Of a DNA stretch of 64,000 nucleotides, positions 8,197-57,910 are shown piece after piece. Position 1 is the stretch's first letter. Every line of letters begins with the position of its first letter. This DNA comes from Gemmatimonadota bacterium (GTDB taxonomy: Bacteria > 4572-55 > J002), in the NCBI GenBank assembly GCA_003697105.1, contig RFFQ01000003.1, positions 4,235 to 68,234 on the forward strand, written 5' to 3'. A program made the translations under genes and the position numbers. The notes under the pieces were generated by a model that did no database searches, had not been told where the DNA came from, and saw only the letters and a list, made by a program, of their open reading frames with translations.

Positions 8197-9210
8197 TCAT
8201 TTCAGCAAAATCATATACTTAGATGCCGTATAGCGTTCGGTTTCAAGTTGGTACATATAGAGACCACTACCCACCGGATGTCCTTGCTGATTCGTCCCAT
8301 CCCAGAAAACCGAGTATTCACCCGCCGGTTGTGTCGTTTCGAGTAAGGTCTTAATCAATTTTCCAGAAACATCATAAACACTCAATTTGAGATGGCTAGG
8401 GTGAGATAAATCATACGGGATTTGGGTTACCGGATTGAAAGGATTAGGGTAGTTTTGGTGCAATACATGTGTTGGAGGTATCGTAACACCATGATGAATT
8501 GCAACATCCGTTTGGAGATCAACATCAATTTTACGAGCTTGATATACTTCATGAGTGGTGTCATTTTGGATAAACACAACCACCGCTAAATTTTCGGCAT
8601 TCCAATCTTCGGCGAGGGTAAATGACCGGTCTATGGTTACCGATTCCCCGGCTTGTGAAATCGAAAGGGGTTCATTCGCCAATAAATCCCGCAAAACATG
8701 ATCAAACTGACGATTGAAATAGAAAAGTGAATCCTCAATGACCGCAAAATGGACAAAAACATTTGTTGAATCTATCGATTCTTCCAGAGTGACGGTAGCA
8801 GTTATCAAGCCTTCTGTAGCACCAATGGTAGCCCTTAAATCCAGTACCATTGGGCTTGGAATTCCCAACCGCGCTTGGACTTCCGGGAGATAAACATCAT
8901 AGATTGTTGGCCAAGCACCCAAAACGTGCCTTACACCGTCAAAATAGGTATTGGGCGTACCTTCTAGCCCGTAATACGCCACCCATCGTTCCGTACCTTC
9001 TGGGATTTCATAAATATCTTCAAAATGATATTTAATGGGTGCAACATTATATTCATCGAGCAACTGCTCGACCGCGGCATACGCGTATGTACATGTCGCT
9101 CACCACACCGCCGTTTGCATTTCGATCAACACCGTTCGCTCTGCCGAAAAACCGGTTTGACTGCTAAAGAACATAATGGACATAATCAAACACAAAATGA
9201 ATTTACGCAT
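8197..9210 (-). CDS. T9SS-sorted secreted thioredoxin-fold protein with an in-frame UGA at the CxxC nucleophile position (candidate selenoprotein; otherwise a disrupted gene)
   Basis: The ATG at 9210 lies 6 nt after an AAGGAG RBS. The product reads MRKFILCLIMSIMFFSSQTGFSAERTVLIEMQTAVW-[TGA]-ATCTYAYAAVEQLLDEYN, and continues in frame into the track ORF 8197..9063 without a frame change. The W-[U]-A-T-C element and a downstream YGLEGTPNTYFDG (cis-Pro) match the thioredoxin WCxxC...cis-Pro pattern. The C-terminus (NYPNPFNP ... LSVYDVSGKLIKTL ... GSGLYMYQL) is a T9SS C-terminal sorting domain. A palindrome (9078-9089) and a 6-bp-stem hairpin (9057-9072) lie 10-45 nt 3' of the UGA, inside the coding region. 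Confidence 0.5.
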
Positions 9211-9231
9211 GGTTGGCTCCTTATCTTTGAG

Positions 9232-10878
9232 TTACGACGCACAACAACTGAGTTTATTCACATCTTTTCCAAAGGTGATTGCCGCAAGCTTAATACCTTC
9301 AGAAAGCGTTAAATACGGGTGAAAAGTTGAAATAAGTTGCGTGACGGTAATACCAAATTTAATGGCTAACGCAACCTCCATAAGTAATTCACCACCCTCA
9401 GAAGCTAGGATTCTCGCCCCAATAAGCTGATCCGTATGTTTATCCCGAATAAGTTTGATGAAACCTCTGGTATCCCGAGCCGCTAAGGATCGAGGCACAT
9501 AAGATAAAGGTAAAACGGCGACATCGGCTTCCATTCCCTGTTCTTTGGCTTGTTTTTCATCGAGTCCGACACCGGCAACTTGGGGGTCAGTAAAGATCAC
9601 CCAAGGCAGCGCCGTATAATCTTGCCGGCGATTCGCGCCGGTAAGTGCATTTTCCGCCGCTAAAGCCCCCTCATAAGCGGCAGTATAAACAAACTGGTAT
9701 CCGCCAATCACATCCCCAGCCCCATAGATATGAGAAACGGTTGTTCGTAAAGTATCATCTACCTTTAAAAATCCGTTTTCATCTAAATCAACACCGGCAT
9801 TTTCGAGACCCAGACCGGTAGTATTTGGTCGGCGTCCGGTAGCAACCAGAAGATGTGATGCCGCAAACGTCGTTTCCTCATGGTTGACCCTTGCTGTGAT
9901 CGTGATCAAACCGTTCGATGATTGAGCGTGAGTTAAGGTAGCACCCGTAACCACCTGAATCCCTTCATCCTGAAGGTAACGGGTTAATTCGTCGGTTAAA
10001 TCGGCTGTTTCAGAGGGTAAAATACGAGATGAGCGTTGTAAAACCGTTACCTTTGTCCCCAATCGGGCAAACATTTGTGCCAGTTCCAAAGCAACGTAGC
10101 GACCCCCCAAAACAATTAATGATTCGGGTAATTCGTTTAACTCAAAAGCGGTTTCGTTTGTTAAATAATTACAGGTTTCAAGACCCGGTATCGGTGGTAT
10201 TGATGGCGCGGCGCCGGTAGCAATCAGTACTTTATCGGCTTTGACGCGTTCGCCATTGACTTCAACGGTATCTGAAGAAATGAATTTACCTGTACCTGTA
10301 ATATACCGGAAGTTGGGTAAATCAGAGACAACATCGGTATATTTCGCCTGTCTGAGGTTTTCCACCAACTCGGTTTTCTGTTGGATAATCGATTTAAAGT
10401 CCGTAACCCGGCTAGTCCCCTCAATACCCTGAAAGTGGTGATGGTTCGCCCGATAATGTGCCTCAGCCGCCCGAATTAACGTTTTAGAAGGCACACAACC
10501 CACATTCACACAGGTACCACCTATCGGGAGACCGTCGTTGATCAGGGTAACAGTCGCCCCCAGTTCATTAGCTTTTAATGCCGCTGAAAACGCCGCTGAA
10601 CCCCCTCCAATAATGACCAAATGTTGGCGGTGACCGTCACCCGTAAGTATATGGCTCGGATAACCCGCATCCGACACAACACTCGCTAGAGTGTCTGGAT
10701 GTGTCTTTTCAGCATCATATATCACCGTTGCCTGTTTATGGGCTAAATCGACCACAGCAGATTGCACCCCATCTACCGTTGCCAGTGCTTTTTCCACTTG
10801 CGAAGCACAGCTAGGACACGTTATACCTTCTACCTGTAAAATTGCACTTTGCTGGCGAGTCGTACAGCATGCTTCCAT
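9232..10878 (-). CDS. merA: Mercuric reductase MerA (N-terminal HMA domain plus pyridine-nucleotide disulfide oxidoreductase)
   Basis: N-terminal GITCPSCASQVEKAL heavy-metal-associated motif. Class-I redox-active disulfide GGTCVNVGCVPSK. FAD- and NAD-binding Rossmann segments. Diagnostic C-terminal vicinal cysteines (...KLSCCAS). Confidence 0.9.
   Translation of the reverse strand: MEACCTTRQQSAILQVEGITCPSCASQVEKALATVDGVQSAVVDLAHKQATVIYDAEKTHPDTLASVVSDAGYPSHILTGDGHRQHLVIIGGGSAAFSAALKANELGATVTLINDGLPIGGTCVNVGCVPSKTLIRAAEAHYRANHHHFQGIEGTSRVTDFKSIIQQKTELVENLRQAKYTDVVSDLPNFRYITGTGKFISSDTVEVNGERVKADKVLIATGAAPSIPPIPGLETCNYLTNETAFELNELPESLIVLGGRYVALELAQMFARLGTKVTVLQRSSRILPSETADLTDELTRYLQDEGIQVVTGATLTHAQSSNGLITITARVNHEETTFAASHLLVATGRRPNTTGLGLENAGVDLDENGFLKVDDTLRTTVSHIYGAGDVIGGYQFVYTAAYEGALAAENALTGANRRQDYTALPWVIFTDPQVAGVGLDEKQAKEQGMEADVAVLPLSYVPRSLAARDTRGFIKLIRDKHTDQLIGARILASEGGELLMEVALAIKFGITVTQLISTFHPYLTLSEGIKLAAITFGKDVNKLSCCAS
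10713..10776. repeat. HMA-module nucleotide repeat, copy A (in the merA 5' region)
   Basis: About 64 bp (cctgtttatgggctaaatcgaccacagcagattgcaccccatcta) recurs at about 10966-11031 at roughly 93% identity. Both copies encode IDGVQSAVVDLAHKQATV of an HMA domain. Confidence 0.7.
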
Positions 10879-10880
10879 TG

Positions 10881-11480
10881 TCAGTCTCCTTTATCGGTTA
10901 ATACTTTGGCAGAATATCCGGCCTTTGCGATCGCCTCAACGAGCTCGGCGGGATGGACGTGGCGATCATCATACGTCACCGTCGCCTGTTTATGGGCTAA
11001 ATCGACCACGGCAGATTGTACTCCATCTATTTCGATCAAAGCATGCTGGACATGTGCCACACATCCGGCGCAGGTCATACCTTCCACAGATAACGTGACC
11101 TGAGCAAACGAAAGGTTCGATTCCACCGTATCTACCGGTCGAACAAATGCGCCACTGTAATACGGAAAGGTCACTAATCCGATAATCACAGGTGCAAGCA
11201 CCCATAGAAGAATTTTATTGAGTTGGTGTGTTTTGGATGCGGTCTTGGTGTGACACCCACATGAATCTGCATTCTTTGGTTTGCGGTAAACAATGTAAAA
11301 CGCGGTGAGGAACAACCCAATGGTTAAACCGACAAAAAGAGGACGGTAGGGTTCTATCACACTGGCAAAACCCACACTACCAAACCCCAATAGCGTAACC
11401 GCCAACGGTAAAATACAACATGAGGAGGCGGCAACGGCGGCTACGACAGCACCGAGAATGGGAAGTTGGTCGAATTTCAT
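10881..11480 (-). CDS. merT: MerT-MerP fusion: mercuric ion transporter with C-terminal periplasmic HMA metallochaperone domain
   Basis: The first transmembrane helix carries the MerT Cys pair (ASSCCILPLAV), and a second Cys pair (DSCGCH) lies in the cytoplasmic loop. The C-terminus carries GMTCAGCVAHVQHAL, the MerP GMTCxxC motif. The gene is 2 nt from merA. Confidence 0.75.
   Translation of the reverse strand: MKFDQLPILGAVVAAVAASSCCILPLAVTLLGFGSVGFASVIEPYRPLFVGLTIGLFLTAFYIVYRKPKNADSCGCHTKTASKTHQLNKILLWVLAPVIIGLVTFPYYSGAFVRPVDTVESNLSFAQVTLSVEGMTCAGCVAHVQHALIEIDGVQSAVVDLAHKQATVTYDDRHVHPAELVEAIAKAGYSAKVLTDKGD
10966..11031. repeat. HMA-module nucleotide repeat, copy B (in the merT-merP fusion 3' region)
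   Basis: Near-identical to 10713-10776. It encodes the C-terminal MerP-like HMA domain of the MerT-MerP fusion. Confidence 0.7.
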
Positions 11481-11548
11481 GAAATACCCTCCTTGTAGAT
11501 TATGGTTTTAGAATAGTTGTGACGGATGTCAGATCACTAGGAGGTCTC

Positions 11549-11803
11549 TCACGATTGTCGTAACATCGTTGCTAAGGATTCTAGTTCATGTTCATGGGGG
11601 AGTCCAACAAGTACAACCGTTCCATTCACCACCAGAGAAGGAACTGCTTTCACGTCATATTGCGCGGCGAGAGCACAACAACTGCCATCCTTGCATTCTG
11701 AAGATCGGTGGACTTCAATTTCGACATCCGGAAAGTGATGATGAAGCCGTTGGAGCGTTTTGTCGCACAAGGGACACTCCGCACTAAAGAATTCAACCTT
11801 CAT
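11549..11803 (-). CDS. Small thioredoxin/glutaredoxin-like protein (CPLC redox motif)
   Basis: 84 aa: MKVEFFSAECPLCDK ... VPSLVVNG. It has a thioredoxin-like CxxC near the N-terminus and a cis-Pro-like VPS, placed between merR and merT. Confidence 0.55.
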   Translation of the reverse strand: MKVEFFSAECPLCDKTLQRLHHHFPDVEIEVHRSSECKDGSCCALAAQYDVKAVPSLVVNGTVVLVGLPHEHELESLATMLRQS

Positions 11804-11815
11804 CGTTAAGCCTCC

Positions 11816-12220
11816 TTAACTGGGAGGTTCAAGAGCCTCCAAAATCGGGCAATCACTTGTATTTTTACGATGTTCACAGCAGGTGACCAGCGTGGACAAG
11901 GTCTGTTTCATCCGCTGGAGAGACTGAATTTTCAGTTCAATATCCTGAATCTTTGCCTCTGCCAGACTCTTAACCGACTCACACGCCACATCCGCATGAA
12001 CCCGTAATGCCAGAAGTTCCGCGATTTCTTTGAGTGAGAAACCCAATTCTTGAGCATGTTTAATGAATCGAATTCGTTTCACGGTATCTGACGTGTACTG
12101 GCGATAACCTGACTCCGAACGTAACGGTTTCGGAAGGAGTTCTTGGCGTTCGTAGTAACGAATCGTCTGAATATTGACTTGGGCTTGTTTGGCTACTTTG
12201 CCAATGGTTAAATATTTCAT
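11816..12220 (-). CDS. merR: MerR-family Hg(II)-responsive transcriptional regulator
   Basis: N-terminal HTH (LTIGKVAKQAQVNIQTIRYYERQELL), a dimerisation helix, and C-terminal Cys residues (VACES ... TCCEH ... DCP) at the spacing of the MerR Hg-binding cysteines. It is co-directional with, and first in, the mer operon. Confidence 0.8.
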   Translation of the reverse strand: MKYLTIGKVAKQAQVNIQTIRYYERQELLPKPLRSESGYRQYTSDTVKRIRFIKHAQELGFSLKEIAELLALRVHADVACESVKSLAEAKIQDIELKIQSLQRMKQTLSTLVTCCEHRKNTSDCPILEALEPPS

Positions 12221-29431: not shown

Positions 29432-30787
29432 TCACTGTTTACGGGCTTGTTTTTCCCGGATCATCCCTTTGGCAACCCGGAAGCGTTGCACCAACGGAAT
29501 ATTTGAAGGACAGACGTACGAGCACGATCCGCACTCCACGCAATCCATCAAGTGATAATTTATCATTTCTTCATACCGTTTGACCCGCGCCAGTTGGCCC
29601 AGCCGGCTGGGGTTAAGGAAAACCGGGCACGCCTCCACACAGCGAGAACAATGGATACACGCATATTCATGGCGCGGACGGATGAGTTCTTCGGTCAGAC
29701 AGACAACCCCAGAGGTACCTTTCATGACCGGCACATCGAGAAACACCTGCGGTGCACCCATCATGGGACCGCCAAACAAAATCTGACGGGTGTCATCGGT
29801 GATACCACCACAATAAGCGAGCAGATCGCTGAGTTTGGTGCCAATTGGCACGGTCAAATTTGCCGGACGGTGGATACCCGGACCGGTTACGGTCACCACT
29901 CGCTCAATTAAGGGCTGGTTGAAGCGGACGAGATCACCAATCCCAGCCATCGTTCCCACATTATTGACCACAACTTCGGCATCAATCGGCAATTTCCCAC
30001 TCGGAACCTCCCGGTTAAGTACCGCCGTAATCAGCATTTTCTCCGCACCTTGGGGATATTTCGTCTGTACCGGCACCACTTCACAGTTTAAATCGGACGG
30101 CACGGTTGCTTGCAGACGTGAAATGGCATCGGGTTTATTGGTCTCCACGCCAATATAGGTTTTTTCCGCACCCAAAATCTTCATACAGACCCGGATACCC
30201 AGATAAATCGAATCGGTTTGTTCCAGCATCAGCCGGTGATCCGTCGTCAAGAACGGTTCGCACTCTGCCGCATTGACAATAAAAAATTTAGCGGTTTTTC
30301 CTTTAGGAGGGGTCAGTTTCACGTGCGTCGGAAATGCCGCCCCACCTAAGCCGACAAATCCACCGGACTGAATAAACTGAACCAACTCTGGCGGGGACAG
30401 ATGCTCCCAATCCAGTTGTTTTTCATTATAAAGCGTTTGGGGTGAGAAGGGGTCCCGCTCAATCACAATCGATTCCACCATCTTGCCGGTGGGATGGTGG
30501 CGCAGTTCAATCCCTTTGATAGTACCCGTCACGGATGCGTGAAGTGGAACGGAAACAAAACCACTTGCCTCCGCAACCGGTTGCCCCCGAAAGACCTTAT
30601 CCCCTGCCTTAACAATGGGTTTGGAGGGGGCGCCTAAATGCTGGCTCAGCGGCAAAACATATTCATCCACAAATGGCATCCGCTCAATGGGTAAATCTTT
30701 GGTAAAATCTTTGTATTCAGAGGGATGAATCCCGTGCTTAAACGTTTTCGCCGGATTCAAAAAATGAAGTAGTGCCGTCATAATCAA
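29432..30787 (-). CDS. rnfC: Rnf complex subunit C (NADH-binding, 2x[4Fe-4S])
   Basis: 451 aa with an RnfC N-terminal domain, a Rossmann-like GLGGAAFPTHVK, and two ferredoxin motifs (CIHCSRCVEACP, CVECGSCSYVCP). Confidence 0.85.
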   Translation of the reverse strand: MIMTALLHFLNPAKTFKHGIHPSEYKDFTKDLPIERMPFVDEYVLPLSQHLGAPSKPIVKAGDKVFRGQPVAEASGFVSVPLHASVTGTIKGIELRHHPTGKMVESIVIERDPFSPQTLYNEKQLDWEHLSPPELVQFIQSGGFVGLGGAAFPTHVKLTPPKGKTAKFFIVNAAECEPFLTTDHRLMLEQTDSIYLGIRVCMKILGAEKTYIGVETNKPDAISRLQATVPSDLNCEVVPVQTKYPQGAEKMLITAVLNREVPSGKLPIDAEVVVNNVGTMAGIGDLVRFNQPLIERVVTVTGPGIHRPANLTVPIGTKLSDLLAYCGGITDDTRQILFGGPMMGAPQVFLDVPVMKGTSGVVCLTEELIRPRHEYACIHCSRCVEACPVFLNPSRLGQLARVKRYEEMINYHLMDCVECGSCSYVCPSNIPLVQRFRVAKGMIREKQARKQ

Positions 30788-32574
30788 AAAAACCAGAAAT
30801 ACGTGAAAAGAGTAACACCAATGCCGGTCATGACATTCATGGGAACACCAATTTTGAGAAAGTCACGGAAGCAATAACCCCCCGGACCATAAACCATTAA
30901 ATTCGTCTGGTAGCCAATCGGTGTAGCAAAACTAGCCGATGCCGCGATGGTCATCGGGATAACCAACAATTTGGGATCAAAACTCAGGGTTTGTGCCGCT
31001 TCTAGGGCAATCGGGAACATGATCGCGGCGGCGGCGTTGTTGGTAATCATCTCTGTGTAAATACTGGTCAGAAAAAAAATCCCAGCAATAACTCCCACCG
31101 GACCAAAAAATGAGACGAGGTCAATCATGTGGGTTGAAATCCATGTTGCTAAACCGGAATTTTCCAATGCCCGCCCGACACCAAAGGCAGACGCTATCGC
31201 CAACAACACCCCCCAATCCACCGATTTTTGAGCGGTCTCCACACTGATGATGCGCAACGCCACCATCAATACTGCCGTACACGCCGCGGCTAACACCATG
31301 GGCATGATGCCGGTGGTTGCCACTAAAATCATCAATATCAGCAGTCCAAGCGCCAGATTTCCTTTCCATCTGGGCTTAGAGAAGACCTCCAAACTGGGTG
31401 AAACCAATAAAAAATCCGGCGAGTGGTACCAGCGGGCATCAAACCCCTTTTTGGACAAAATAAAGAGTGTATCACCCGGGCGAAAAACAATATCCCCCAC
31501 TTTTTTGTTAATCCGGTGTCCGCTACGATGAATCGCCAGAATCACGGCATCAAACCGGCTGCGAAAGTTGCTTTCCCGCACAGATTGCCCCACCAGCGAG
31601 GAGCGTTCCGAAATGACCGCCTCATACGTATTCAGTTGGTCGGAGTCAAAATCGGCAAGGTTGAACTCACTATCCCGCACCGCATACAAACCGTGCATTT
31701 TTTGCAGTTCGTAAATCGTCTCCGGCAATCCCGTAAAAAAGAGCCGGTCTTTCTCCAAAATAATCTCATCCGGTGCAACGGGCGCGATAATTTCGCCATC
31801 CCGAATAATCTGAAATAAAAATAAGCCCTGCAAATGGCGGAGTTTGGCATCATCAACGGTCTGGTTGAGTCCCGGGTAATCTGCCGAGACACTCATTTCT
31901 ACCACAAATTCACGGGTGTGGTCACCCAAATCAACAATGGGGTCTTTCTTTGACGGCAATACAAAATAGCTCACCAATGATAACCCGAACAACAAGATCA
32001 CGGTCAGCGGCAAGCTGATTTTGGTGAGTTCAAAGAATGAAAACCCATCCAGCCCATGATCCAGCAACATCCCATGCACCACTAGATTGGTGCTAGTGCC
32101 GATCAACGTACAAGTCCCCCCTAAAATTGCCGCGTACGAAAGCGGAATCAGGAACTTCGATGCCGGTTGGTCCATCCGTTTTGCCCAGTTTTTGACCACC
32201 GGAATCAACGTTGCCACAATGGGGGTGTTGTTCAGGAACGCCGACAGGGTTGCCACCGGTATCATCAACCGCAGATACCGTAAAACCGTGGGGGTCTGGC
32301 GGTCTCCGAGTAAACCGTAAATGAGTTTATCAAATGAACTGGAGCTTTGCAACGCCGTGCTGACCACAAACAAAAACCCAACCGCCAACATGCCTTTGTT
32401 GGCGAATCCGGCAAATGCCTCATCCACACTAACGACACCCCCAATCGTCAATAAGAGCAGTGCCCCCAAGATCGTAATATCCGGTTTGAACAGCTCGGTT
32501 GCCAGCACAATAGTCATCAACAGCAGGATGAAGGCAGTGTACCAGAGTTCAAAATCCATGTTTTCAAGGAACAT
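30784..32574 (-). CDS. SLC13/DASS-family anion transporter with two central TrkA-C domains
   Basis: 596-aa permease with hydrophobic N- and C-terminal halves and two regulatory TrkA_C-like cytoplasmic segments in the centre. Its stop overlaps the rnfC start by 4 nt. Confidence 0.65.
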   Translation of the reverse strand: MFLENMDFELWYTAFILLLMTIVLATELFKPDITILGALLLLTIGGVVSVDEAFAGFANKGMLAVGFLFVVSTALQSSSSFDKLIYGLLGDRQTPTVLRYLRLMIPVATLSAFLNNTPIVATLIPVVKNWAKRMDQPASKFLIPLSYAAILGGTCTLIGTSTNLVVHGMLLDHGLDGFSFFELTKISLPLTVILLFGLSLVSYFVLPSKKDPIVDLGDHTREFVVEMSVSADYPGLNQTVDDAKLRHLQGLFLFQIIRDGEIIAPVAPDEIILEKDRLFFTGLPETIYELQKMHGLYAVRDSEFNLADFDSDQLNTYEAVISERSSLVGQSVRESNFRSRFDAVILAIHRSGHRINKKVGDIVFRPGDTLFILSKKGFDARWYHSPDFLLVSPSLEVFSKPRWKGNLALGLLILMILVATTGIMPMVLAAACTAVLMVALRIISVETAQKSVDWGVLLAIASAFGVGRALENSGLATWISTHMIDLVSFFGPVGVIAGIFFLTSIYTEMITNNAAAAIMFPIALEAAQTLSFDPKLLVIPMTIAASASFATPIGYQTNLMVYGPGGYCFRDFLKIGVPMNVMTGIGVTLFTYFWFF

Positions 32575-32579
32575 CTAAT

Positions 32580-35500
32580 TTAAGTGTGATCACCATTACC
32601 CGCTAACGTTAGCAGGTACTCCCGGAAACTGGCACGGAAATTCGGGTCGTTGCCCACATACGCCATCAATTTTCGGCGTAGCCGATCCAGATAAATTTGC
32701 CCGTGTTGTTGGTCAAGAGTGGCGAGCTGGGCTTCATAATCCGCAATTAAAGCGGCTTTTTCCTGCTCAAACTGATCGATCATTTCGCGTTTCGCCTGTT
32801 CGATGATCTGCTCATTTGCCGGGGAATAAATTCCGGCTAATTCCTGCAATAGTCGCCAAAAGCGGTGTCTATCTTCAATTTCTGCAATAAGTTGTGGCGA
32901 AAGCAACGCCCGTAATTTCTCACCATTCTGAGTGGTAAACATCACGTAAGCGGCATAATACGCCCGATCCGCCACCGGAAGTTGTAGATAATCTGCTAGG
33001 GGTAATTGATTTTGATCCCATTGCTGTTTTGGCAAAAGATTGATTTGCGACCGGAACCGGGCTTCTGTTAGGGCAAAATCGGCGAATGTTAAGCCATTAA
33101 ACAGATCAGACTCCACTGCTGGATTGCCCGCCAGATTCAATACCGGTTGTCCCGGCGGGTACGTAAACACCGGAAACGTCCGGCTTTCCACCGCCAAGCG
33201 CCCTTGAGCAAACACCTGATCCGGAGCAATCCCATGGCTCGCCGGTTCGGGAGTGTAAATATTCAAAACCGCGGGACCGTCCCACAGCACCGCATCCCTC
33301 ACCCCTTTGAGCAAATGACCGGGAGTCCCGACACTACTTTGCACCACATAGACTCCGCGGTGCATTAGCGCCAGCAAGCCAAATTCCCGCCGGTACCGCC
33401 GTGCCGCGAAACTCGCGCCGTTAGACTGCCCGCCAGTTGCCGTGAAGCCCTGTGTATCCAGCAGCACTATCTTGACCGGCAGGTGGCTTGCCATCAGGCG
33501 GGAAACCGCTTCAAATCCGGCTTCACCGAGTGCGCCATCACCCCCGACTACCAGTAGCGGCGGGCACAATTCCCGCTCTGCCGGACTAAAATCTTTGATG
33601 CTAAACTGCGCAAAAAAGGCATCGTGTTCTGCGGCACGATAAGCATCATCAAGTTCTAACTCCGCCTGCCGGATAACCTTAAACGTCTCCGCCATTTTGC
33701 GTTGAATGCCTGCTAGCAAGCCTTCCGCCACAGCGGCGGCATCACCGTACCCTTGATTCGCCCATGGAAACGGAAACGGATTGTAGGGATACGTGCCCCC
33801 CCAAAAGAGTACACTACCCGTAGCTAACGCCATTGCCAACCGCGCCCGGCCGTCACCGTTAAAACCGGTTTGATACCGTTGCTGAAGGTCGATCAACTGT
33901 TGCCGCAAGTTTGTTAATCGTTCCAGTTGGCGTTTATCCAATTGGGGGAGCGGCGCATCGGTCGCCAACGCCACTAGCGTTTGGGGGTCAATGTGTTTTT
34001 GTTCCAATGCGGCGAGTTTTTTCCCAAACAGGTCAAAGTCATTGATATGGAGGGAATGGGTCATCTTCCCCTGTAATTTCAACTCGATCTGGTTCACCAG
34101 ATCGGATAATCTTGCGCGGAACTGTTCGATTCTGGGCTGCATAACGGCTTCAATGGCAGCCGCCACCAGATGAATGGCAATTTTAGACCCACTACCGGGG
34201 AAGGCACCATCCCCACCGATCAGCGAATGGTACACTTTCGGGTTTAACAAGCGGTAACCTTCGGTTTGGAGGTCGTCTTTATCGATCAGCGCTTCAATCT
34301 GATCCGTTGAGGGGGCGGGTAACTGCCGTAAAAAGTCACCCTGCCGTTGTGCCGATTCTAACCGTTCCGCAGTCTGGGCGACCATCTCAATTGCATTTTC
34401 GGGGCAAACCGCCGCACACAAGCCACACATTTTACAGGCTTGCGGGTCCACCGCTATCGTGAGAAGACCTTGCCGAAACGAGGTAAACGGGAAACCGGCA
34501 ACCTCACCCCGCAATTGATTGAAATCATGCTGAATCGCTGCTTGTTGGTCCCCTTTCAAGTTCATCAGGGACATCAGCTTGTCGAACGCTTGCTGTAACA
34601 GGACATCGACCGTTGCCAACTCGCTGGAATTCGCTTTATCAAGGATTTTCTGAGCTTGCTTTGCCAGATGATCTGCCATGCGTTGAAGTTGAATCATCGA
34701 CTCGCCACGTGCCTGACATGCTTTGATCCCCGTTTGAATGATGGAACCAATATGTTGCGCCGTTACGGGTAGCGCCATATCGGGGCAGGTGGTCCAGCAG
34801 AGGTTACAGCCGGTACACCGGCAATGATCAATCTGCGGGAGTTGGGTGCAATACGCACTCATATCACGAAACGCCGCACTGCGTGCCGGAATGACGCCTG
34901 CCGCTACAAACGGGTCGGGCAGCGCCTGATCCGGTTGCGCCGTTTCATAAAAATAACCCACCGAATCCCAAAAACGGGCTAAATCTGGCAGTTTGCCATC
35001 GGGTTGGCTGACCTGCTTCACCGTCCAAGGGGGTGCCGGTTCAAATATGCCCACCCCTTCATGATCGGGCATCGCTTGCCAGTCCAAAGGCTGTACCATT
35101 TCTGCACCGTGGATCATCATCTTGAAATTGAGGTCAATCACCTTTTTGGATTTCCCAAACTGTGCTTCTAATTGGCGGCGATAATGCCCGCGTAGCGGCT
35201 CTAAATCATCAGCGGAGAAATCCTCACAGACCTTAAAAAACGCCCCGATCAAGGCTTGATTTGCTAACCGGTCATCATACCGCCCATCTGCCGCCATCGA
35301 TTGTAAAATGTGCTGGGCATTGATCAGGTAAATACGGGCGTTTAACGCCTTGACCTGCCGCTTGACTTTATCCGGCAGGCGTAACCAAAGTTGGTCGGGA
35401 GTCTGTTCAGATTGTACCAGTAGGATACCGTTTTCCTTGAGATGGGCAAAATTAGCGGCATTATGAAAAAGCGTGGTGTGGGAAAAGAGAATCGCATCCA

Positions 35501-37151
35501 CTTTATCGGACACATGTTTGGGGGTAGTATCCTCATCGGAATGTAAAATCGTGTAAATTGTGGGTTGCATGGACTGGTTGGGACCGTATTCTGGGTAGGT
35601 TCGGATGTGCCAATTTTTGGCATCCGCCAAGGTTCGTGCCAAGACGGTGCCGGCAAGCGTTCCTCCGGCACCGGCAATGGAATAAAGTTGGAATGCCCGG
35701 AAGGTTTTGGGTTCTTTTTTCAGATGGAGGTCACCGGTCAGGCTGAATCGATCCAAGCCCGGATAATCCCGGTGCATCACCTGCTGTAACGTTTCCAGCA
35801 TCGGGAATCGCACACCATCTTGCCGGAAGGTAAGCCCGAGGTAAAATTTGCGTTTTTGCGCCCCTTTGGGAGTCATGTTGCGGAAGGTGGCGACAAGATC
35901 ACCAAACTGCGGATTTCGTCCGCCAATACCATATATACCGGTGTAAAACTGGGGTCGATCTTTGAGGTGGCGGTACACCGCATGGTCTGGGTACACCGGA
36001 TGTTGCGGTCGGAGACCATTTTCAAGTGCTTTGTCCACCGCGGCGCGAACTTCCCGGAGCAGGGGCAGGTCTTCTGCCAACGGCTGGTCAACCCGTTCCA
36101 ATACGGTGACGGCGGTTTTCCCTTTCAAGAAGTGGGTCAGCAAGTCCCCCGGAAACGGGCGAAACACACTCAGATTGATCACCCCCGCTTTGATATGTTC
36201 GTGCTGGCGCAGGTAATCCGCCGCCGCTTCGGCATCTTCGACCACAGAGCCTTGAGCAATGATCACGTAATCCGCATCCTCAATTTTGTAGCCAGAGGCG
36301 CGTTGGTAGTAGCGGGCAGTTAGTTCGGCAAACTCTGCCATCGCCTGATCCATAAATTGGGCAACATGATCGAAGAAAAACGGTCGTTGGGCGGCAATTG
36401 CACGGAAAAAACTATCTTGATCGTGTACCGTGCCGATTCCCAACGGGCGATCCAGATCGAACCATTCCGGGATACGGCGGCGTTTATCGCCAAAGATCAT
36501 CTTTTGGGCTGGGGTGGGTGTTGGAATCAGGTCATGAGCCGTTCCGAGAAATTCGCGCACCAAATCTGCCGGGGGGAGCTGGATCGTTTGGACGGAATGG
36601 CTGGTATAGTAGCTATCCTGAGCCACAATACCGGGGTTAAGCGCCAGTTCCGCCACGCGATGAGCAATCAAGGCAAAATCAACGGCTTCTTGTACATTTT
36701 TCGCAAACATCTGGAAGGCGCCGGTATCTGCCACCGCATGATAATCATCGTGCCCGCCATGTAAGGTATTGGCGTGCTTGGCAATCGCCCGGCAAGTCAG
36801 GTTGATCACATAACTGAGCCGCTTCCCTACCGCCGCAAAAAGCGACTCGTGCATTTCGGCGAGCGTACTACCGCTGGTAAAGGTGGTGGATCGTAACCCG
36901 ACCAGCGAAAAACCCGCCAGCGTACCGGCAACGGAACGCCCACTACCCGCCTCCCGAAAAATAAGTGCCCCTTCCTGTAAGGGAGCGGCTAATTGGGCGG
37001 TGTTCGGCACCGGGAACATCCCGGCGGCATCGCTCGCTAATTTTTCGACCCGAAGGACGGCAGTATGTCCATCCAGCGCGATTTTTTGCCCGTTAAAACG
37101 GGGTTCTTTTTTGGTTTTGGATTTATTAAATAGCATCGATCCGGTATCCAA
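32580..37151 (-). CDS. Giant fused PFOR-like 2-oxoacid:ferredoxin oxidoreductase (about 1523 aa) with inserted segments and a coiled-coil C-terminal tail
   Basis: PFOR domain order is retained: an N-terminal pyrimidine-binding domain, a gamma-like domain (GAGGTLAGTVLA), two 4Fe-4S motifs (CRCTGCNLCWTTCP, CKMCGLCAAVCP), and a TPP-binding domain (CPPLLVVGGDGALGE ... LLDTQGFTATGGQSNGASF). Two features are non-canonical: the cluster motifs are separated by about 130 aa, and there is an about 170-aa C-terminal extension. Confidence 0.7.
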   Translation of the reverse strand: MDTGSMLFNKSKTKKEPRFNGQKIALDGHTAVLRVEKLASDAAGMFPVPNTAQLAAPLQEGALIFREAGSGRSVAGTLAGFSLVGLRSTTFTSGSTLAEMHESLFAAVGKRLSYVINLTCRAIAKHANTLHGGHDDYHAVADTGAFQMFAKNVQEAVDFALIAHRVAELALNPGIVAQDSYYTSHSVQTIQLPPADLVREFLGTAHDLIPTPTPAQKMIFGDKRRRIPEWFDLDRPLGIGTVHDQDSFFRAIAAQRPFFFDHVAQFMDQAMAEFAELTARYYQRASGYKIEDADYVIIAQGSVVEDAEAAADYLRQHEHIKAGVINLSVFRPFPGDLLTHFLKGKTAVTVLERVDQPLAEDLPLLREVRAAVDKALENGLRPQHPVYPDHAVYRHLKDRPQFYTGIYGIGGRNPQFGDLVATFRNMTPKGAQKRKFYLGLTFRQDGVRFPMLETLQQVMHRDYPGLDRFSLTGDLHLKKEPKTFRAFQLYSIAGAGGTLAGTVLARTLADAKNWHIRTYPEYGPNQSMQPTIYTILHSDEDTTPKHVSDKVDAILFSHTTLFHNAANFAHLKENGILLVQSEQTPDQLWLRLPDKVKRQVKALNARIYLINAQHILQSMAADGRYDDRLANQALIGAFFKVCEDFSADDLEPLRGHYRRQLEAQFGKSKKVIDLNFKMMIHGAEMVQPLDWQAMPDHEGVGIFEPAPPWTVKQVSQPDGKLPDLARFWDSVGYFYETAQPDQALPDPFVAAGVIPARSAAFRDMSAYCTQLPQIDHCRCTGCNLCWTTCPDMALPVTAQHIGSIIQTGIKACQARGESMIQLQRMADHLAKQAQKILDKANSSELATVDVLLQQAFDKLMSLMNLKGDQQAAIQHDFNQLRGEVAGFPFTSFRQGLLTIAVDPQACKMCGLCAAVCPENAIEMVAQTAERLESAQRQGDFLRQLPAPSTDQIEALIDKDDLQTEGYRLLNPKVYHSLIGGDGAFPGSGSKIAIHLVAAAIEAVMQPRIEQFRARLSDLVNQIELKLQGKMTHSLHINDFDLFGKKLAALEQKHIDPQTLVALATDAPLPQLDKRQLERLTNLRQQLIDLQQRYQTGFNGDGRARLAMALATGSVLFWGGTYPYNPFPFPWANQGYGDAAAVAEGLLAGIQRKMAETFKVIRQAELELDDAYRAAEHDAFFAQFSIKDFSPAERELCPPLLVVGGDGALGEAGFEAVSRLMASHLPVKIVLLDTQGFTATGGQSNGASFAARRYRREFGLLALMHRGVYVVQSSVGTPGHLLKGVRDAVLWDGPAVLNIYTPEPASHGIAPDQVFAQGRLAVESRTFPVFTYPPGQPVLNLAGNPAVESDLFNGLTFADFALTEARFRSQINLLPKQQWDQNQLPLADYLQLPVADRAYYAAYVMFTTQNGEKLRALLSPQLIAEIEDRHRFWRLLQELAGIYSPANEQIIEQAKREMIDQFEQEKAALIADYEAQLATLDQQHGQIYLDRLRRKLMAYVGNDPNFRASFREYLLTLAGNGDHT

Positions 37152-37260
37152 TATATCTCTAAATATACGAATGAGTTCAAGAATTGGGGCGGTTAAGCCA
37201 CCTCATGGTATGATCATCAAAAAACCTTATGTTTTTAGACTGCTATGGCAACACACCTTC

Positions 37261-37716
37261 TTATAAGAGTACTCTCGGATGTGTAACTATTTGAGGTTAT
37301 GGGTCTTAAAATTCAGGTTTCAGCAGTTGCAATACACAAAAATTTAAATCACCACATCTCTCGGATGTTTCTTCCGAGAGTTCTCCGCACAGGAGAGCCG
37401 GCTGGCCTTCCCCCCGATGTCAGGGGGATTAAGGGGGGGTCAAACATCCTCCCCTCTTGCGGTTCCAACGCGCCTCCGCGCAGGAGAGCCAACACGGTCA
37501 TGGTAGAGACGTTGCAGTGCAACGTCTCTACCAGTTCCACACCGTCGAACAGGTGAATGCCCTCTAACGATCACGATCAGGTCGAACGCTCCTGCTTTGA
37601 CCCTCATTTTTTAAAACCGACACGGTCAAAGACGAATTGTCGCTGTCGCGAGAAACAGAATGAAGCACTACTCTGGCAATACTCTCGGAAGAAACATCCG
37701 AGAGTTCTCCTTATAA
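37261..37716. mobile_element. MITE-like non-coding element (about 456 bp) with roughly 25-bp imperfect terminal inverted repeats and internal hairpin modules
   Basis: Left end is TTATAAGAGTACTCTCGGATGTGT. The right end, reverse-complemented, is TTATAAGGAGAACTCTCGGATGTTT. There are three copies of the hairpin module CTCTCGGA-N7-TCCGAGAG (37271, 37358, 37683), and the loop is inverted between copies. Internally there is a perfect 31-bp palindrome (37502-37532) and G/C-run stem segments. No ORF of reasonable length is present. Confidence 0.4.
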
Positions 37717-37776
37717 CGACAAAGCTCACCTGCCGCTTTGGTGCGCAGCGGAAAAGCGGTCAGGTGCAGCGCCTTG

Positions 37777-38694
37777 TTAGCCATTATATGTTGATCCCTT
37801 TCCAAACAGCGTTAATTGTGTCGCTATCGGCGATTTCTTCTCCTCGTATGTAGGCACAAAATTCGTGACAAGCGCCTCAAGCATCGGATTTCTGTTTTTT
37901 TCCCTTGCTCCAACATGGTAAAAGTGATCTTTGGTGAGAACATTGTACCCACTCCAAAACATTGCAATAAACTGGTTTGCTCTAAACTCATTTCCATGCC
38001 ACGTGGAGAGAATAAACCGAGCTTCTGTCTCCCCAAGAAGCTTTGCTAGTTGCCGTTCATGTTCCTCGTCCCACCCGTTAAAATAATCCGTATGACGAGC
38101 GATATATGGAGGGTCGCAATACAGCAGATCGCTAGGCAATGCTTCAGCAATTGTCTCGGAGTAATCCTGGCAACGGAACTCGTAATCACCTAAGACACAA
38201 GCGTCTGCAACCATTTGAACTTGATTGACTATCTTTGTGATATAGGCCTGCGCGAAACGATTTGGCTTTCGACAGAATGGAACATTGAATTCGCCCTTGC
38301 GATTGAAACGAATCATTCCGTTAAAACATGCCCTGTTCAAAAAAAGGAAATCGAGAGGATTACCGTAACGGTTGAATCTTTGTCGAACTGAGTAATAATG
38401 CTCTCCTTCAGAGCGTAGTAATTCTGCGCCTTCTCTCTCGAGAAATTCCCTCGTGATTGCAGCAGTTATCTCACCCTTGGCGACTGCTTGGTAAAAATTG
38501 ATGACGTGTGGGTTTGAGTCTGCTAGCAATGCCTTTCGGGGTCTCACATTGAAGGCCACGACGCCTGACCCCATAAACGGCTCAATCCAGCGACCGTCAA
38601 AATCGGAAGGGATAATAGCTTTTATCCAAGGAACTAATTTCGTCTTGATCCCTTGACACTTTATTGGTGGCACCAGTATTCGCTGACTGCTCAT
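37777..38694 (-). CDS. N6-adenine DNA methyltransferase (Dam/D12 class, alpha group)
   Basis: 305 aa with motif [12 protein letters not shown] near the N-terminus and motif [10 protein letters not shown]. Its start overlaps the upstream gene's stop (ATGA). Confidence 0.8.
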
Positions 38695-39578
38695 GGTTGG
38701 TTATTCCTTGGGACAATAAGCGACGGATCTCCTCCGCGATATTTCACAAAATCAACAAGTGATGTAATCTTCCGGCTTTTCCCATCCGGGCCTCTGGTGA
38801 GGATCTTTCCATAATTCATCCAGTAATCGTCAAACCACTCCTCGCCCAGCTTTGAGAACATACCATTACCAGACAGGATATCGTCGATGCGCTGGATGCT
38901 TCCGATATTGGCTGTATTTCCGGACCCACCTTTGTCGCCAGCGATTCGCCATTTCTCGGCAACGAAAAACTGGATATTTGATATGACGGAGGTGATGGAG
39001 TGCAATTGCTCAATAGGATACGAACGTGTCTCGTCAATAGAAGCCCCGTCAGAGCGATCATAGATAATACCTAAGCAGAAATGTCCAGAATAGCTTCCGT
39101 AAGGAAACTGTATGTTCTTGGTGCTTGTTCGGTCCTGGAAATATTTGCCATGCGATCCAAGAGTGAATCCGTTGCAAAGCCAAGGCTTATCCGGAAGGCG
39201 ATAGGTCGTCTTAAAGTCAACAGCAAACCGCACTGAATCATCTTGTTTGGAGACAAATGATATGTCCGGGTAGTAATTCTGATGCTCAGCGAGAACGAGG
39301 GCGAATCCATGATCTCCAGCAAAGGCAAGGATTCGAGGGAAGAGGTGGATTTCAAGGATCTTGGAGACAATCTTGGTGTCAGACGAAATCGTATAAACGT
39401 TCCGAAATGTGTCGATGAATCCCTTGACTGTCCACTGACCGTCGTCCGTGCTTACGTGTCCCGTAAGGGTGCCTGCAAGCTCTTTTAGCGCTTTTTCGAA
39501 TTCTGCTCTCGTCATTGCTTGTGATCTCTTTCTTATGGCTAACATGATGAATATCCTTAGAAAACCACGCAAAAACAA
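38691..39578 (-). CDS. Putative type II restriction endonuclease, partner of the Dam-type methyltransferase
   Basis: About 270-295 aa with no recognisable methyltransferase motifs. It is translationally coupled to the methyltransferase. The track start is a TTG, and an internal ATG ([13 protein letters not shown], near 39515) is a plausible alternative. The restriction-enzyme assignment rests on context only. Confidence 0.4.
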
Positions 39579-39605: not shown

Positions 39606-40832
39606 TTAACAATAAATCCGGATGGTATCGATGATGAACCGGGCAGCATCCATGACTTCTTGGTAATCCGTACCGCGTACAAAAATGTTGCTCTCACCGA
39701 CATAGCTGTGTTGCCTCAAAGTGCCCACCGGCGCAATATCTTCTGCCACGATCAAGTGCCCCACGGTCTGGTGGACTTTTTCTAAGCCATAGATTTCCTG
39801 AATGTGTTGCCCACTGCCTTGTGCCCGTAAAAAGCAAATCGCCACATCGTACAACCGGGGTTGGTCGGGACGTAAATCAGTTTGACCGAAAACCATGGTT
39901 TTACCCCATTCCGCATATAGGTTGATGTCATGCCCATAGTTGTGCAGACCTAAAATGCGGTCACCGGAGGGGCGCGCCGCAATTTCACTGACATAAATAT
40001 CGCCGGTTTTCCGATGACGAAACCATTCCATGTGGGTAATAGAGGTATCCAGCCCTAAAGCGTTAATGGTTGCCACGCCGGCTTGGCGCAGGTCGGCGTA
40101 TTCCTCGCTGTCGGGGTGATCTTTGGCAAAACTGTAAATCGATTGAATCCACGAGTTATTCATCGCGTGGAGCGGATTCGGTTCATAGTGCGTCATAGAG
40201 TAGAAATGAATCTGACCGTCAATGGTAATGGTATCAAAAGAACCTTCTTCCCCATCAATAAATTGCTCCAACATGACGGGATAGCGAGAAAGTTGCTCTA
40301 AATTACAATGCGCTTGCAATTCCGCCCAACTGTTGATTAAAAATGTAGAGATAGTACCCGCCCCGCGCACCGGCTTGAGCACCACCGGAAAACCATGCGT
40401 TTCTACGAAGGCTTCTGCCGCGGAATAAGAGTCAATTTGTTGAAATGCGGTACACCGGATGCCATGTTCTCGCAGGATTTCCTTCATGTAAGCCTTATCG
40501 CGAAATCGTCGCGCCATTTCGGTGTGCATACCCGGCAGATGGAACTGCTCCCGCAATTGAGAGATCGGCAGTTGAAGTTCCTCCAAGATATTGAGTAGTG
40601 CGTGAATCTCATATTCATCTTGGAGATCGGCAATCGCTTGTTCCAGTTGACGATAATCGAGCGCATTCTGCACCGAATATACCTCATCAAACAGATTCAA
40701 ACTTGCCAGATAGTCGGTTCGATCTGCACTGAGTGCAATCAGATTGAGGTCGGGTAACTGCCGGAGCGGATAGATAAAGCGAAGCGTCATTTCGCCAAAA
40801 TGGGGTGAATAAAATACGACGTTGCGTCTCAT
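39606..40832 (-). CDS. ATP-grasp family ligase (carboxylate-amine/peptide ligase-like)
   Basis: The start was refined to the ATG at 40832 (MRRNVVFYSPHFGEMTL...). It is preceded by GGAGGG 4 nt upstream, which overlaps the upstream gene's TAA stop. There is an ATP-grasp core (HGFPVVLKPVRGAGTISTFLI ... MLEQFIDGEEGSFDTI ... YVSEIAARPSGD) with an N-terminal pre-ATP-grasp domain. Confidence 0.7.
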   Translation of the reverse strand: MRRNVVFYSPHFGEMTLRFIYPLRQLPDLNLIALSADRTDYLASLNLFDEVYSVQNALDYRQLEQAIADLQDEYEIHALLNILEELQLPISQLREQFHLPGMHTEMARRFRDKAYMKEILREHGIRCTAFQQIDSYSAAEAFVETHGFPVVLKPVRGAGTISTFLINSWAELQAHCNLEQLSRYPVMLEQFIDGEEGSFDTITIDGQIHFYSMTHYEPNPLHAMNNSWIQSIYSFAKDHPDSEEYADLRQAGVATINALGLDTSITHMEWFRHRKTGDIYVSEIAARPSGDRILGLHNYGHDINLYAEWGKTMVFGQTDLRPDQPRLYDVAICFLRAQGSGQHIQEIYGLEKVHQTVGHLIVAEDIAPVGTLRQHSYVGESNIFVRGTDYQEVMDAARFIIDTIRIYC

Positions 40833-40842
40833 AGAACCCTCC

Positions 40843-41040
40843 TTACTCCCCCACCGGACGAATGACAATTTCCTCTGACGGCTCTAACCCGATCACTTGT
40901 TGCACATTGACGGTTTCCAGCGCCTCATCTTTTACCTCAAAGACGATCTGTTGACCCTCCGCCAACCGGATATAAATCGCTTTGGGGTTTTCGATTTCAG
41001 TCGGCTGAAAATCTTGATCGACAATAGTTACGGTAAACAT
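40843..41040 (-). CDS. 65-aa acidic beta-grasp-like (MoaD/ThiS-like) small protein ending in ...PVGE
   Basis: ATG at 41040 with AAGGGAGGTG 8 nt upstream. Product is MFTVTIVDQDFQPTEIENPKAIYIRLAEGQQIVFEVKDEALETVNVQQVIGLEPSEEIVIRPVGE, with 13 acidic residues (3 D, 10 E) against 4 K/R. The N-terminal beta-strand and the C-terminal EEIVIRPVGE resemble the MoaD terminus (...DEVAFFPPVTGG), but with Glu in place of the terminal Gly-Gly. It is 21 nt downstream of rnfB. Confidence 0.45.
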   Translation of the reverse strand: MFTVTIVDQDFQPTEIENPKAIYIRLAEGQQIVFEVKDEALETVNVQQVIGLEPSEEIVIRPVGE

Positions 41041-56341: not shown

Positions 56342-57910
56342 TTAAAACCGAAGTGTACCAGACATATGCACGACATCTTCACCGAGTTCATTGGTACAAC
56401 TATTGTACTCGTTGGCGATAGTAGAACCATTAGACTCCAGTTCGTTAGCAAAGACCTTTTCGTAAGCCATATCAACTTGAAACATACCGTTGAAATTATA
56501 TCCCAAACCAAATGTTAGATGGTTCTCGACGATTGCCGGAAAAATTGGAATCACCGTTTCCGCGGGTACCGGATTTTTGGCATAATTAAACCCGGTGCGC
56601 ACTGCCAGATTTGGGGTAGCCCAGAATTCCAGCCCCATAGCAACCACCAGTTGATTATCCCAGTTCATGGGCATTTCCAACGTCATGCTGCCATCTGGTG
56701 TACCCATCATAGTGTTGATATTAGAATTATCTCCGTTGGAAAAGTGCATCACAAATTCTTTCATGGTATCTTCCCAATTGATCCAGTGGACATCGGTGGC
56801 GATAATCAAGCGATCATTGGGGGCATATGCCACCCCAAAACCAAATTCCTGAGGCCAGGAAAAGTCAATATCAACATCGTACATGGCTTTCATGCCAAGG
56901 CTCATATCAATCCCCATATCACTTAATTGCTGCATGACACCTTGCTGCGCCATTTGTAATTCCTGTTCGGTCGGATTCATCGGGTCTTGCACCACTCCAT
57001 CTTGCGACATTTGCACTAATGCACCCATCACCATCCGTTCGTAGGCATTATTGAATTGAGCAGTCATATCCATGCCAGCTTCCCCGGAAAAATCCAACGT
57101 GGATTTCATGGTATAGCTGGCGCCCACGCGAAGTTTATCTGTCACTTTGTACTGAATTCCCAGTTTCCCGCCCCAACCGGTGGCGGTAACAGCATCGTCC
57201 ATATCTGCATACGCAGTAACTTCATCAAAGTCTAAACCGCCTTGTTCCATCGGCGCACCAAACATATCACCAAAAGTCATTCCATTTCCGCCGGGCACTT
57301 CACCCAGCATCGCACTCGGTGGCAGGCTGTACGGCATCTACATTTCCATTTGGGCATAGCCAAAATTGAGTGCAAAACCGATAGAAAAATCAGGTGTAAA
57401 TTGATACGCTACCGTCGGAGCAAGCTTCATGTAGCCAATATTAGAGTGGTATTCCTGACCCACATGATCATCCTGTGTGGTTGGATTTCCATCAGACGCA
57501 CAAAAGATATCGTGCTTAACATCATTATAGGTTGCCCCCATCCCTCCTTGGGCATAAAAGCCAATACCAAATGCGAACTTGCTATCCGCCTGATTGTAAA
57601 CATAGCCAAACGATGGTAGTGGAAAGGTTTCGCTGTCCGCATCAAGATTGTTCAATTCGTTTTCAAAATGAACGGAAGGCATCAACAAACCAAGGCTCAA
57701 ATCCAGTTGTTGACCGGTAATGGTGCTAATCCCGGCAGGGTTGGTATTCATCAAATGAGTGTCATTATTCATAGCGAAAGATGCGCCGCCCATCGCTGAC
57801 ATTCGTGCGCCGTAGCCAATCATATTCATCCCGTTAGTTGCAAAAGCAGTCTGAACCGTGAAAAGTAAGACAATGACAAGAATTGCAACCGATACAACTC
57901 GTGAGTTCAT
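56342..57910 (-). pseudogene. FadL/TodX-family outer-membrane transport protein interrupted by an in-frame TAG (57338-57340)
   Basis: The ORFs 57338..57910 and 56342..57337 are in the same frame and contiguous (...GYAQMEM-TAG-MPYSLPP...). The N-terminus has a signal peptide and the FadL NPAG motif (TNPAGISTI). The C-terminus ends in the beta-barrel signature ...SGTLRF. Total length is about 521 aa. Confidence 0.55.

Follow-up and report, generated by a model that had tools for sequence, protein, structure and literature searches.

The 639-nt intergenic gap between two minus-strand genes was analysed in a 64,000-nucleotide stretch (the window) of contig RFFQ01000003.1, assembled from a Gemmatimonadota bacterium (GenBank assembly GCA_003697105.1; positions 4,235 to 68,234 of the contig). 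The gap, at positions 37138–37776 of the window, lies between the genes for a Dam-type DNA methyltransferase and a PFOR-like 2-oxoacid:acceptor oxidoreductase. We lean towards a composite origin, in which the gap consists of the attC site of a solitary integron-type cassette and, next to it, an orphan unit resembling a miniature inverted-repeat transposable element (MITE), placed in an otherwise conserved energy-metabolism cluster. Both are known kinds of element; new are the marker of the attC family, the host and the context of the locus.

The attC site and its solitary restriction-modification cassette

An attC site is the folded, bulged-hairpin recombination site by which an integron integrase moves gene cassettes. 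Judged by its sequence and predicted fold, the segment 37711–37782 is such a site. The site and the two genes that precede it on the minus strand are:

37711–37782, minus strand: integron attC site, 72 nt (identified from homologues, covariation, covariance model and integron context)
37777–38694, minus strand: gene for a D12-class (Dam-type) N6-adenine DNA methyltransferase (Pfam MethyltransfD12, E = 2e-49)
38691–39545, minus strand: gene for an EcoRV-family type II restriction endonuclease (Pfam Endonuc-EcoRV, E = 8e-117)

In a sensitive blastn search of the gap against plasmids, only the last 66 nt (37711–37776) matched, with approximately 82% identity. The matches fall into unannotated DNA of Citrobacter pLNU-11 and Geoalkalibacter pGSUB1, which come from different phyla. 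That in pGSUB1 lies directly 3' of a methyltransferase gene which is not homologous to the one in the window (BLASTP E = 0.075), and that in pLNU-11 lies at the 5' junction of a group II intron running antisense to the neighbouring small genes. The three sequences share the pattern AAC-AAGGC-GCTGCACC...GGTGAGC-TTnGTC-GTT, while the central stem differs by compensating changes. The conserved ends, AAGGCGCTGCACC...GGTGAGCTT, were found in four viral contigs and in at least 120 from metagenomes; in the latter, the sites follow many different open reading frames (ORFs). Several metagenome contigs carry two or three sites in tandem, and arrays are present in contigs L064, L035, L089 and L121.

On the minus strand, the site of the window reads R'' = GGCTAAC, AAGGC, L'' = GCT[G]CACCTG[A]CCGCTTT, a 13-nt loop, L' = AAAGCGGCAGGTGAGC, TTTGTC and R' = GTTATAA. 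It has two unpaired bases on the 5' arm and spacers of 5 and 6 nt. This spacing, R'' (7), 5 nt, 3 bp, bulge, 6 bp, bulge, and finally 6 nt and R' (7), is that of the aadA 59-base element, one bulged base having a different identity. The TAAC of R'' pairs with the GTTA of R', the TAA stop codon of the methyltransferase gene sits inside R'', and the crossover G|TT falls between 37717 and 37716. Among 127 unique sites of the family, AAC precedes the motif in 120–123, with the upstream seven bases fitting RYYYAAC, and GTT stands at +4 in 103, with the consensus GTTRRRY (typically GTTAGGC, GTTAGCC, GTTATGC or GTTGGGC). The R'' of the window is the second commonest of the family (15 of 127; one deviation from the consensus). 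Its R' is rare (2 of 127; two deviations).

The bulged hairpin was 89% paired in a gap-free alignment of 40 attC sites, with 11 pairs changed on both sides, as against at most 47% pairing in slid controls in which the partner was moved by 1–3 columns. A covariance model of the family scored the site of the window with 88.5 bits (E = 5e-24). In contig L077, at least four sites of the family lie divergent from a gene for an integron integrase (TIGR02249, 414.5 bits with a cutoff of 265).

The L077 region 7743–10640 is a complete environmental integron, two cassettes of which are short (about 160–240 bp) and apparently lack an ORF. The region around the match in pLNU-11 (L025; NZ_KX863568.1, approximately 22.4–28.1 kb) is unannotated and resembles a cassette array. 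Here, a group II intron (ltrA) breaks into an attC-family site on its R'' side, and about 1.1 kb away a further 5' fragment of an intron adjoins another attC-like site. The publication describing pLNU-11 mentions neither attC nor group II introns (PMC5641379).

As the attC site directly follows the stop codon of the methyltransferase gene, the EcoRV-like endonuclease and the Dam-type methyltransferase form an integron-type gene cassette. The endonuclease gene comes first and overlaps the methyltransferase gene by 4 nt. Its product shows 54–56% identity over 96–97% of its length to annotated EcoRV-family enzymes, and the Logan assemblies likewise place its start at 39545. The methyltransferase record (RMH74286.1) carries the name Dam family methyltransferase at NCBI. 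GATATC, the EcoRV site, occurred 9 times compared with 14.4 ± 3.8 expected, a difference which is not significant.

With the family covariance model, exactly one attC was found in 98.8 kb (window and flanks); the model is specific for this family, and attC sites of other types could be missed. Pfam scans and precomputed annotations of the window and its flanks revealed no tyrosine or serine recombinase and no integrase. Within the 98.8 kb and for this family-specific model, there is thus neither intI nearby, as for a complete integron, nor a cluster of two or more attC sites, as for a CALIN. A single attC of the family with no integrase nearby classes the locus as a solitary cassette, or SALIN, the term for a single attC without an integrase in the vicinity (PMC9024848; bioRxiv 10.1101/2022.09.11.507474).

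The cassette would have entered at a non-classical genomic G|TT (GWT) site, inserted by an integrase acting in trans. Integrases have been shown experimentally to insert cassettes at ordinary genomic GWT sites (bioRxiv 10.1101/2022.09.11.507474), and cassettes are known to carry type II restriction systems (bioRxiv 10.1101/2024.07.02.601686). The locus shares with known integron sites the R''/L''/L'/R' layout, the two bulged bases and the stop codon inside R'', and its family includes arrays that adjoin an integron integrase. It differs in its host, a poorly sampled lineage of metagenome-assembled genomes (MAGs) labelled Gemmatimonadetes, in the interruption of a conserved POR/PFOR-like/Rnf cluster, in its rare R' and in having a 5' cassette boundary that could not be located. 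On this reading, the locus adds a natural example to the recently demonstrated insertion of cassettes at ordinary genomic sites. It would show a route for a selfish restriction-modification pair into a little-studied lineage, by a cassette dropped into an oxidoreductase/Rnf cluster far from any integron. The family itself is abundant in environmental metagenomes, and its conserved ends provide a simple marker for finding such cassettes.

Anatomy of the 443-bp unit

On the side of the attC site towards the PFOR-like gene lies a non-coding unit with the following features, listed without strand:

37267–37709: non-coding MITE-like unit of 443 bp, bounded by terminal inverted repeats (repeat search, alignment of the ends, coding check)
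37694–37709: terminal inverted repeat proximal to the methyltransferase gene, ACATCCGAGAGTTCTC, matching its partner in 15 of 16 positions
37267–37282: terminal inverted repeat proximal to the PFOR-like gene, GAGTACTCTCGGATGT, carrying only a half-site and no hairpin
37710–37716: first copy of the direct repeat CTTATAA, which reads TTATAAG on the minus strand and may be a target-site duplication; it starts exactly at the attC crossover
37260–37266: second copy of CTTATAA, perfect in 7 of 7 positions
37682–37704: hairpin site R, CTCTCGGA-AGAAACA-TCCGAGAG, followed by TTCTCC on the plus strand (pattern and repeat search)
37358–37380: hairpin site M, CTCTCGGA-TGTTTCT-TCCGAGAG, followed by TTCTCC (pattern and repeat search)
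37382–37680: segment of 299 bp inside a perfect 24-bp inverted repeat (37358–37381 and 37681–37704; repeat search)
37501–37533: palindrome of 33 bp with perfect 16-bp arms around one central base and no U-tract (repeat search)

The repeats are genuine and far exceed what chance would give. A perfect inverted repeat of 24 bp is the longest present, whereas 60 first-order Markov simulations of the region yielded none above 11 bp, and a 16-bp inverted repeat with at most one mismatch occurred in none of 150 simulated regions. Half-sites of the hairpin motif number five in the 64-kb window, compared with 1.1 expected, and all are at this locus. The two ends of the unit read GAG(A/T)ACTCTCGGATGT. 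Two further short direct repeats were seen inside the 299-bp segment: CTCCGC(A/G)CAGGAGAGCC at 37383–37399 and 37474–37490, which are 91 bp apart, and CC(A/G)ACACGGTCA at 37489–37500 and 37617–37628.

The first-pass annotation, made from the sequence alone, had described the stretch as a non-coding, MITE-like element at the boundary of a restriction-modification island, and much of this description could be confirmed. The stretch is intergenic and its five longest ORFs have no Pfam match even at E ≤ 1, while a look-up of the small ORFs inside the unit for inverted or extra copies returned nothing on record. The restriction-enzyme and Dam-methyltransferase genes alongside have the Pfam matches given above. 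TTATAA is present at both ends (37261–37266 and 37711–37716) with the ends of the inverted repeat inside, the runs of C6, G5 and G7 are in place, and the 7-nt loops of the two full hairpin sites are exact reverse complements of each other, as had been noticed. The dimensions needed correction. The bounded unit has 443 rather than 456 bp. The ends are inverted as proposed, over 16 bp with one mismatch; a reading of about 25 bp requires an indel. Of three hairpins reported, two are full sites and the third (37272–37279) is a lone half-site without partner arm. The perfect palindrome is there, measured as 33 bp instead of the 31 bp of 37502–37532. Lastly, the unit and the methyltransferase gene are not direct neighbours, being separated by about 60 nt of the attC site.

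Origin of the unit and alternative explanations

The unit is small (below about 600 bp), non-coding, bounded by terminal inverted repeats and flanked by a direct repeat, as is characteristic of MITEs. Judged by this structure, it is most likely a non-autonomous transposon of the DDE type, now orphaned. Such an element would have inserted into TTATAAG at the junction between cassette and chromosome, and the motif GAGAACTCTCGGA, found at both ends and at one internal site, is presumably a transposase-binding sequence. Of the attC family, 111 sites were compared, and this is the only one with such a unit at the crossover, which indicates a separate insertion and not a part of attC. The sequence TATAAGGAG behind the attC of contig L052 was considered as a relative of the unit and rejected, being only a ribosome-binding site followed by ATG. 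The integration scar, which the first-pass annotation had offered as a further reading, was right in spirit, the real recombination site being the neighbouring attC and not the unit.

Known bacterial MITEs, such as the Correia elements of Neisseria and those flanking class 1 integrons in Acinetobacter, are likewise small and non-coding with terminal inverted repeats and a direct repeat; they share the intergenic position and the association with integron-derived DNA. In contrast to these, the unit described here is known as one copy, has no identified parent insertion sequence and no similarity to any plasmid-borne element, and carries its end motif a further time in the interior, forming the 24-bp inverted repeat, in addition to the 33-bp palindrome. 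An assignment to repetitive extragenic palindromes (REP), bacterial interspersed mosaic elements (BIME) or IS200/IS605-derived elements does not agree with the hairpin motif occurring at only this locus in 64 kb, and is also contradicted by the terminal inverted repeats and the flanking duplication. Other foreign elements are known from attC sites, namely group IIC-attC introns and IS1111-attC elements, and the attC in pLNU-11 contains a group II intron. Those elements insert inside attC at a fixed position and carry their own enzyme, and they are not known to have terminal inverted repeats with a target duplication. The 443-bp unit, in contrast, lies just outside R' and encodes nothing, and the other 110 attC sites of the family have no comparable neighbour.

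A number of observations weigh against the composite origin proposed here. The 5' boundary of the cassette was not located, and the candidate G|TT positions at 39576 and 39565 give an atypical R'. On the bottom strand, one of the two extrahelical bases would be C, where G is usual. Of the MITE as first proposed, the structure held and gained strength from the corrected reading of the ends, namely the inverted ends matching in 15 of 16 positions, the 7-bp direct repeat and the lack of coding capacity; dispersed copies were not found in the DNA searched. The window plus about 18 kb of flank (about 82 kb of contiguous genome) contained no second copy of the unit. A blastn search against plasmids and phages gave no match to the unit itself, none of approximately 150 fetched loci contained a sequence related to it, and no parent insertion sequence was found in the sequences searched. 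As TTATAA is palindromic, a single base separates the 7-bp duplication from the alternative of a longer inverted repeat containing one indel. That the duplication sets in right at the crossover of attC has to be treated as coincidental in the MITE model; a shared preference of the two events for the AT-rich GTTATAA may be the simple reason. A MITE has no need of the internal 24-bp inverted repeat or of the 33-bp palindrome, and the model does not account for them.

GTTAAAT at the stop codon of the upstream ATP-grasp gene was considered as the 5' crossover of the cassette and rejected, as the homologues end at the same natural C-terminus, ...IRIYC*.

The failure to find copies has to be seen in relation to the collections searched. 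The exact 23-mer of the hairpin site had no match in genome and metagenome contig collections that do not hold the source locus itself; these collections therefore lack the organism, and the absence of copies does not refute a MITE. In viral contigs, a stricter hairpin pattern and the 33-bp palindrome had no match each. A looser hairpin pattern gave 11 matches there, which were dismissed as chance, since each was an isolated site whose spacer and flanks were unrelated. Searching the literature for the repeat motifs as strings yielded only unrelated primers.

The hairpin sites raise the question of an invertible DNA switch. On the minus strand, site R reads GGAGAA-CTCTCGGA-TGTTTCT-TCCGAGAG and site M reads GGAGAA-CTCTCGGA-AGAAACA-TCCGAGAG. 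Read in direct orientation, the two sites thus agree in their arms and in the 6 nt upstream of them, and only the spacers are inverted. Because the arms are palindromic and the direction is set by the spacer alone, the two sites are formally inverted. If the 299 bp were inverted, site R would become a perfect 14-7-14 palindrome and site M would keep only minimal arms. One inversion from such a state would then produce what is seen today, as would a template-switch loop flip in one of two direct repeats. A tyrosine recombinase flipping the 299 bp could alter transcription into the PFOR-like/Rnf genes or antisense transcription into the restriction-modification genes. We regard an active switch of this kind as unlikely, notwithstanding several features that suit it. 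The perfect 24-bp inverted repeat encloses the 299 bp and far exceeds the 11-bp maximum of the simulations; the additional flank TTCTCC stands in direct orientation at both sites, as would be expected from a single inversion; and the two 23-bp sites combine palindromic arms of 8–9 bp with an asymmetric 7-bp spacer in opposite orientation. An arm-spacer-arm arrangement with an odd 7-bp spacer fits the geometry of tyrosine rather than serine recombinases, and the size of the segment resembles that of fimS-type switches. Against this, there is no recombinase gene within approximately 47 kb on one side and 34 kb on the other, no sigma-70-like promoter was found in 36900–38000, and an operon of central metabolism is an unusual target for phase variation. 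The orientation was the same in two full assemblies (the window and L001) and in the two partial Logan contigs that reach into the segment; assemblies in general give the majority state only.

Compared with fimS and its recombinases FimB and FimE, with the invertons of Bacteroides and with loxP and FRT, the locus has two inverted sites about 300 bp apart upstream of an operon, with identical palindromic arms and an asymmetric spacer. It differs from them by the lack of a nearby recombinase, the single orientation seen, the lack of a detected promoter in the segment and arms of only 8–9 bp, or 14 bp on one side. In a related version, the unit would be a working two-state element with loxP-like sites (14/8-bp arms) recombined by a distant tyrosine recombinase; in a variant of this, it would represent a new class of non-autonomous elements which a tyrosine recombinase moves and which target the attC crossover. 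To this we give only a slight chance. If it were true, the 299-bp inversion, placed where the captured cassette meets the Rnf/PFOR-like operon, would switch expression of the operon or antisense control of the cassette. Otherwise, the element is of local interest only, unless it is shown to invert or to form a family.

Three Logan contigs (L004, L002 and L003, from SRR7905023 and SRR7905024) end inside the unit, at 37344, 37519 and 37566. These positions are not at the edges of the inverted repeat, which counts against a switch, and the breaks were rejected as evidence of inversion. They could result from loss of coverage at palindromes and G/C runs, or from heterogeneity of the population.

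The remaining explanations do without mobility of the unit or assign it to the integron. The palindromes may be non-mobile regulatory DNA of the host, namely operators of a dimeric factor acting on the PFOR-like/Rnf operon, perhaps by looping. Two perfect palindromes with 8-bp arms and a half-site upstream of a large operon, the confinement of the motif to this locus in the window and a site spacing of 324 bp, which amounts to about 31 helical turns, agree with this. Operators nevertheless give no reason for spacers that are exact reverse complements and leave the terminal inverted repeats and the 7-bp duplication unexplained; the element also lies beyond the likely native leader, and relatives have only 33–130 nt at this position. 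In sum, we hold operators to be distinctly improbable. A degenerate or ORF-less cassette remnant, or a scar of integrase-mediated rearrangement next to attC, seems very unlikely to us, even though the unit starts exactly at the G|TT crossover and opens like a cassette with AAGGAG-N9-ATG, the ORF having only 9 codons. ORF-less cassettes do occur in the same attC family (L077), and imprecise integrase-mediated events have been reported (bioRxiv 10.1101/2022.09.11.507474). However, there is no attC at the distal end, where the covariance model finds no site beyond the single one, the base before the second TTATAAG is C and not the G needed for a G|TT junction, and integrase-mediated insertion creates neither target duplications nor terminal inverted repeats.

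Finally, the spacer might harbour a functional structured RNA, such as a leader, a small RNA or an RNase III processing module. Both RNA strands of the spacer fold far better than shuffled sequences. The predicted fold of the coding strand is very stable (z = −8.5), and no intrinsic terminator was found on this strand, so that transcripts of the restriction-modification genes probably continue through the spacer. The opposite strand, however, folds nearly as well (z = −7.9), and such near-equal folding indicates palindromes at the DNA level and not a strand-specific RNA. Rfam gave no match at E ≤ 10 in 36800–38200 and none at the gathering score in the whole window, and there are no homologues to examine for covariation. 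The small RNA, also suggested in the first-pass annotation, thus received no specific support, and we consider a functional RNA highly improbable.

In a read-through transcript, the long inverted repeats would form double-stranded RNA and could uncouple the upstream from the downstream messages. Processing of such duplexes by an RNase III-type enzyme is possible; it is known for Correia elements. The PFOR-like/Rnf operon probably uses its native leader of 120 nt, and any effects of the spacer on its neighbours are probably incidental.

The conserved cluster and neighbouring genes

The first gene downstream of the gap and the region in front of it are:

32580–37136, minus strand: gene for the PFOR-like 2-oxoacid:acceptor oxidoreductase, 1518 residues
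37138–37259, minus strand: region presumed to contain the native leader and promoter of the PFOR-like/Rnf operon, proposed from the 33–130 nt gap of the relatives

The leader region is presumed to lie outside the inserted DNA. The closest relatives of the PFOR-like protein show 51–54% amino acid identity. Their gene order is a gene for an RnfB-like Fe–S protein, 33–130 nt, the gene for the PFOR-like protein and rnfC; the stretch under study is absent. In the window, about 3.9 kb separate the Fe–S protein gene from the PFOR-like gene, comprising an ORF of 65 residues, an ATP-grasp gene, the two restriction-modification genes and the 639-nt gap. This difference from the short spacing in the relatives marks the region as an insertion hotspot inside a conserved cluster. 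Logan assemblies of SRR7905023 and SRR7905024 also contain the locus, as does JGI metagenome 3300014822 (L001), whose copy is collinear with the window and shows 19 single-nucleotide polymorphisms in 20.9 kb, one of which is inside the gap. A protein-guided search of genome contigs for relatives found none. Two 54-residue 'cluster members' of the PFOR-like protein were discarded as fragments of an unrelated amidohydrolase.

The 65-residue ORF and the ATP-grasp gene (39606–41040) are not at this position in the relatives. Homologues of the latter occur elsewhere (L153–L155) in unrelated contexts, one of them being 47% identical and from the same two samples as this locus. Their neighbourhoods were rejected as an 'empty site' for comparison because they are unrelated, and the C-termini of the Fe–S proteins proved too variable to date the insertion. 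3' of the PFOR-like gene, a CitMHS transporter gene is followed by the Rnf operon. This CitMHS/TrkA-C gene (30784–32574) sits between the PFOR-like gene and rnfC, whereas in the relatives L007 and L012 rnfC directly follows the PFOR-like gene, which makes the transporter gene a second insertion in the same cluster.

The protein accessions pass from RMH74286 (methyltransferase) straight to RMH74287 (ATP-grasp), which suggests that the deposited MAG lacks a protein record for the EcoRV-like endonuclease gene (38691–39578), although its ORF looks intact.

Elsewhere in the window, a gene for an outer-membrane transporter of the FadL/TodX type (56342–57910, minus strand) is split into two ORFs by an in-frame TAG at 57338–57340, in the context gaa atg TAG atg ccg, and may represent a pseudogene, a sequencing error or read-through. 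A mercury-resistance cluster at 9232–12200 encodes MerA with an HMA domain, a MerT–HMA fusion, a thioredoxin-like protein and MerR, and adjoins a heavy-metal RND efflux system.

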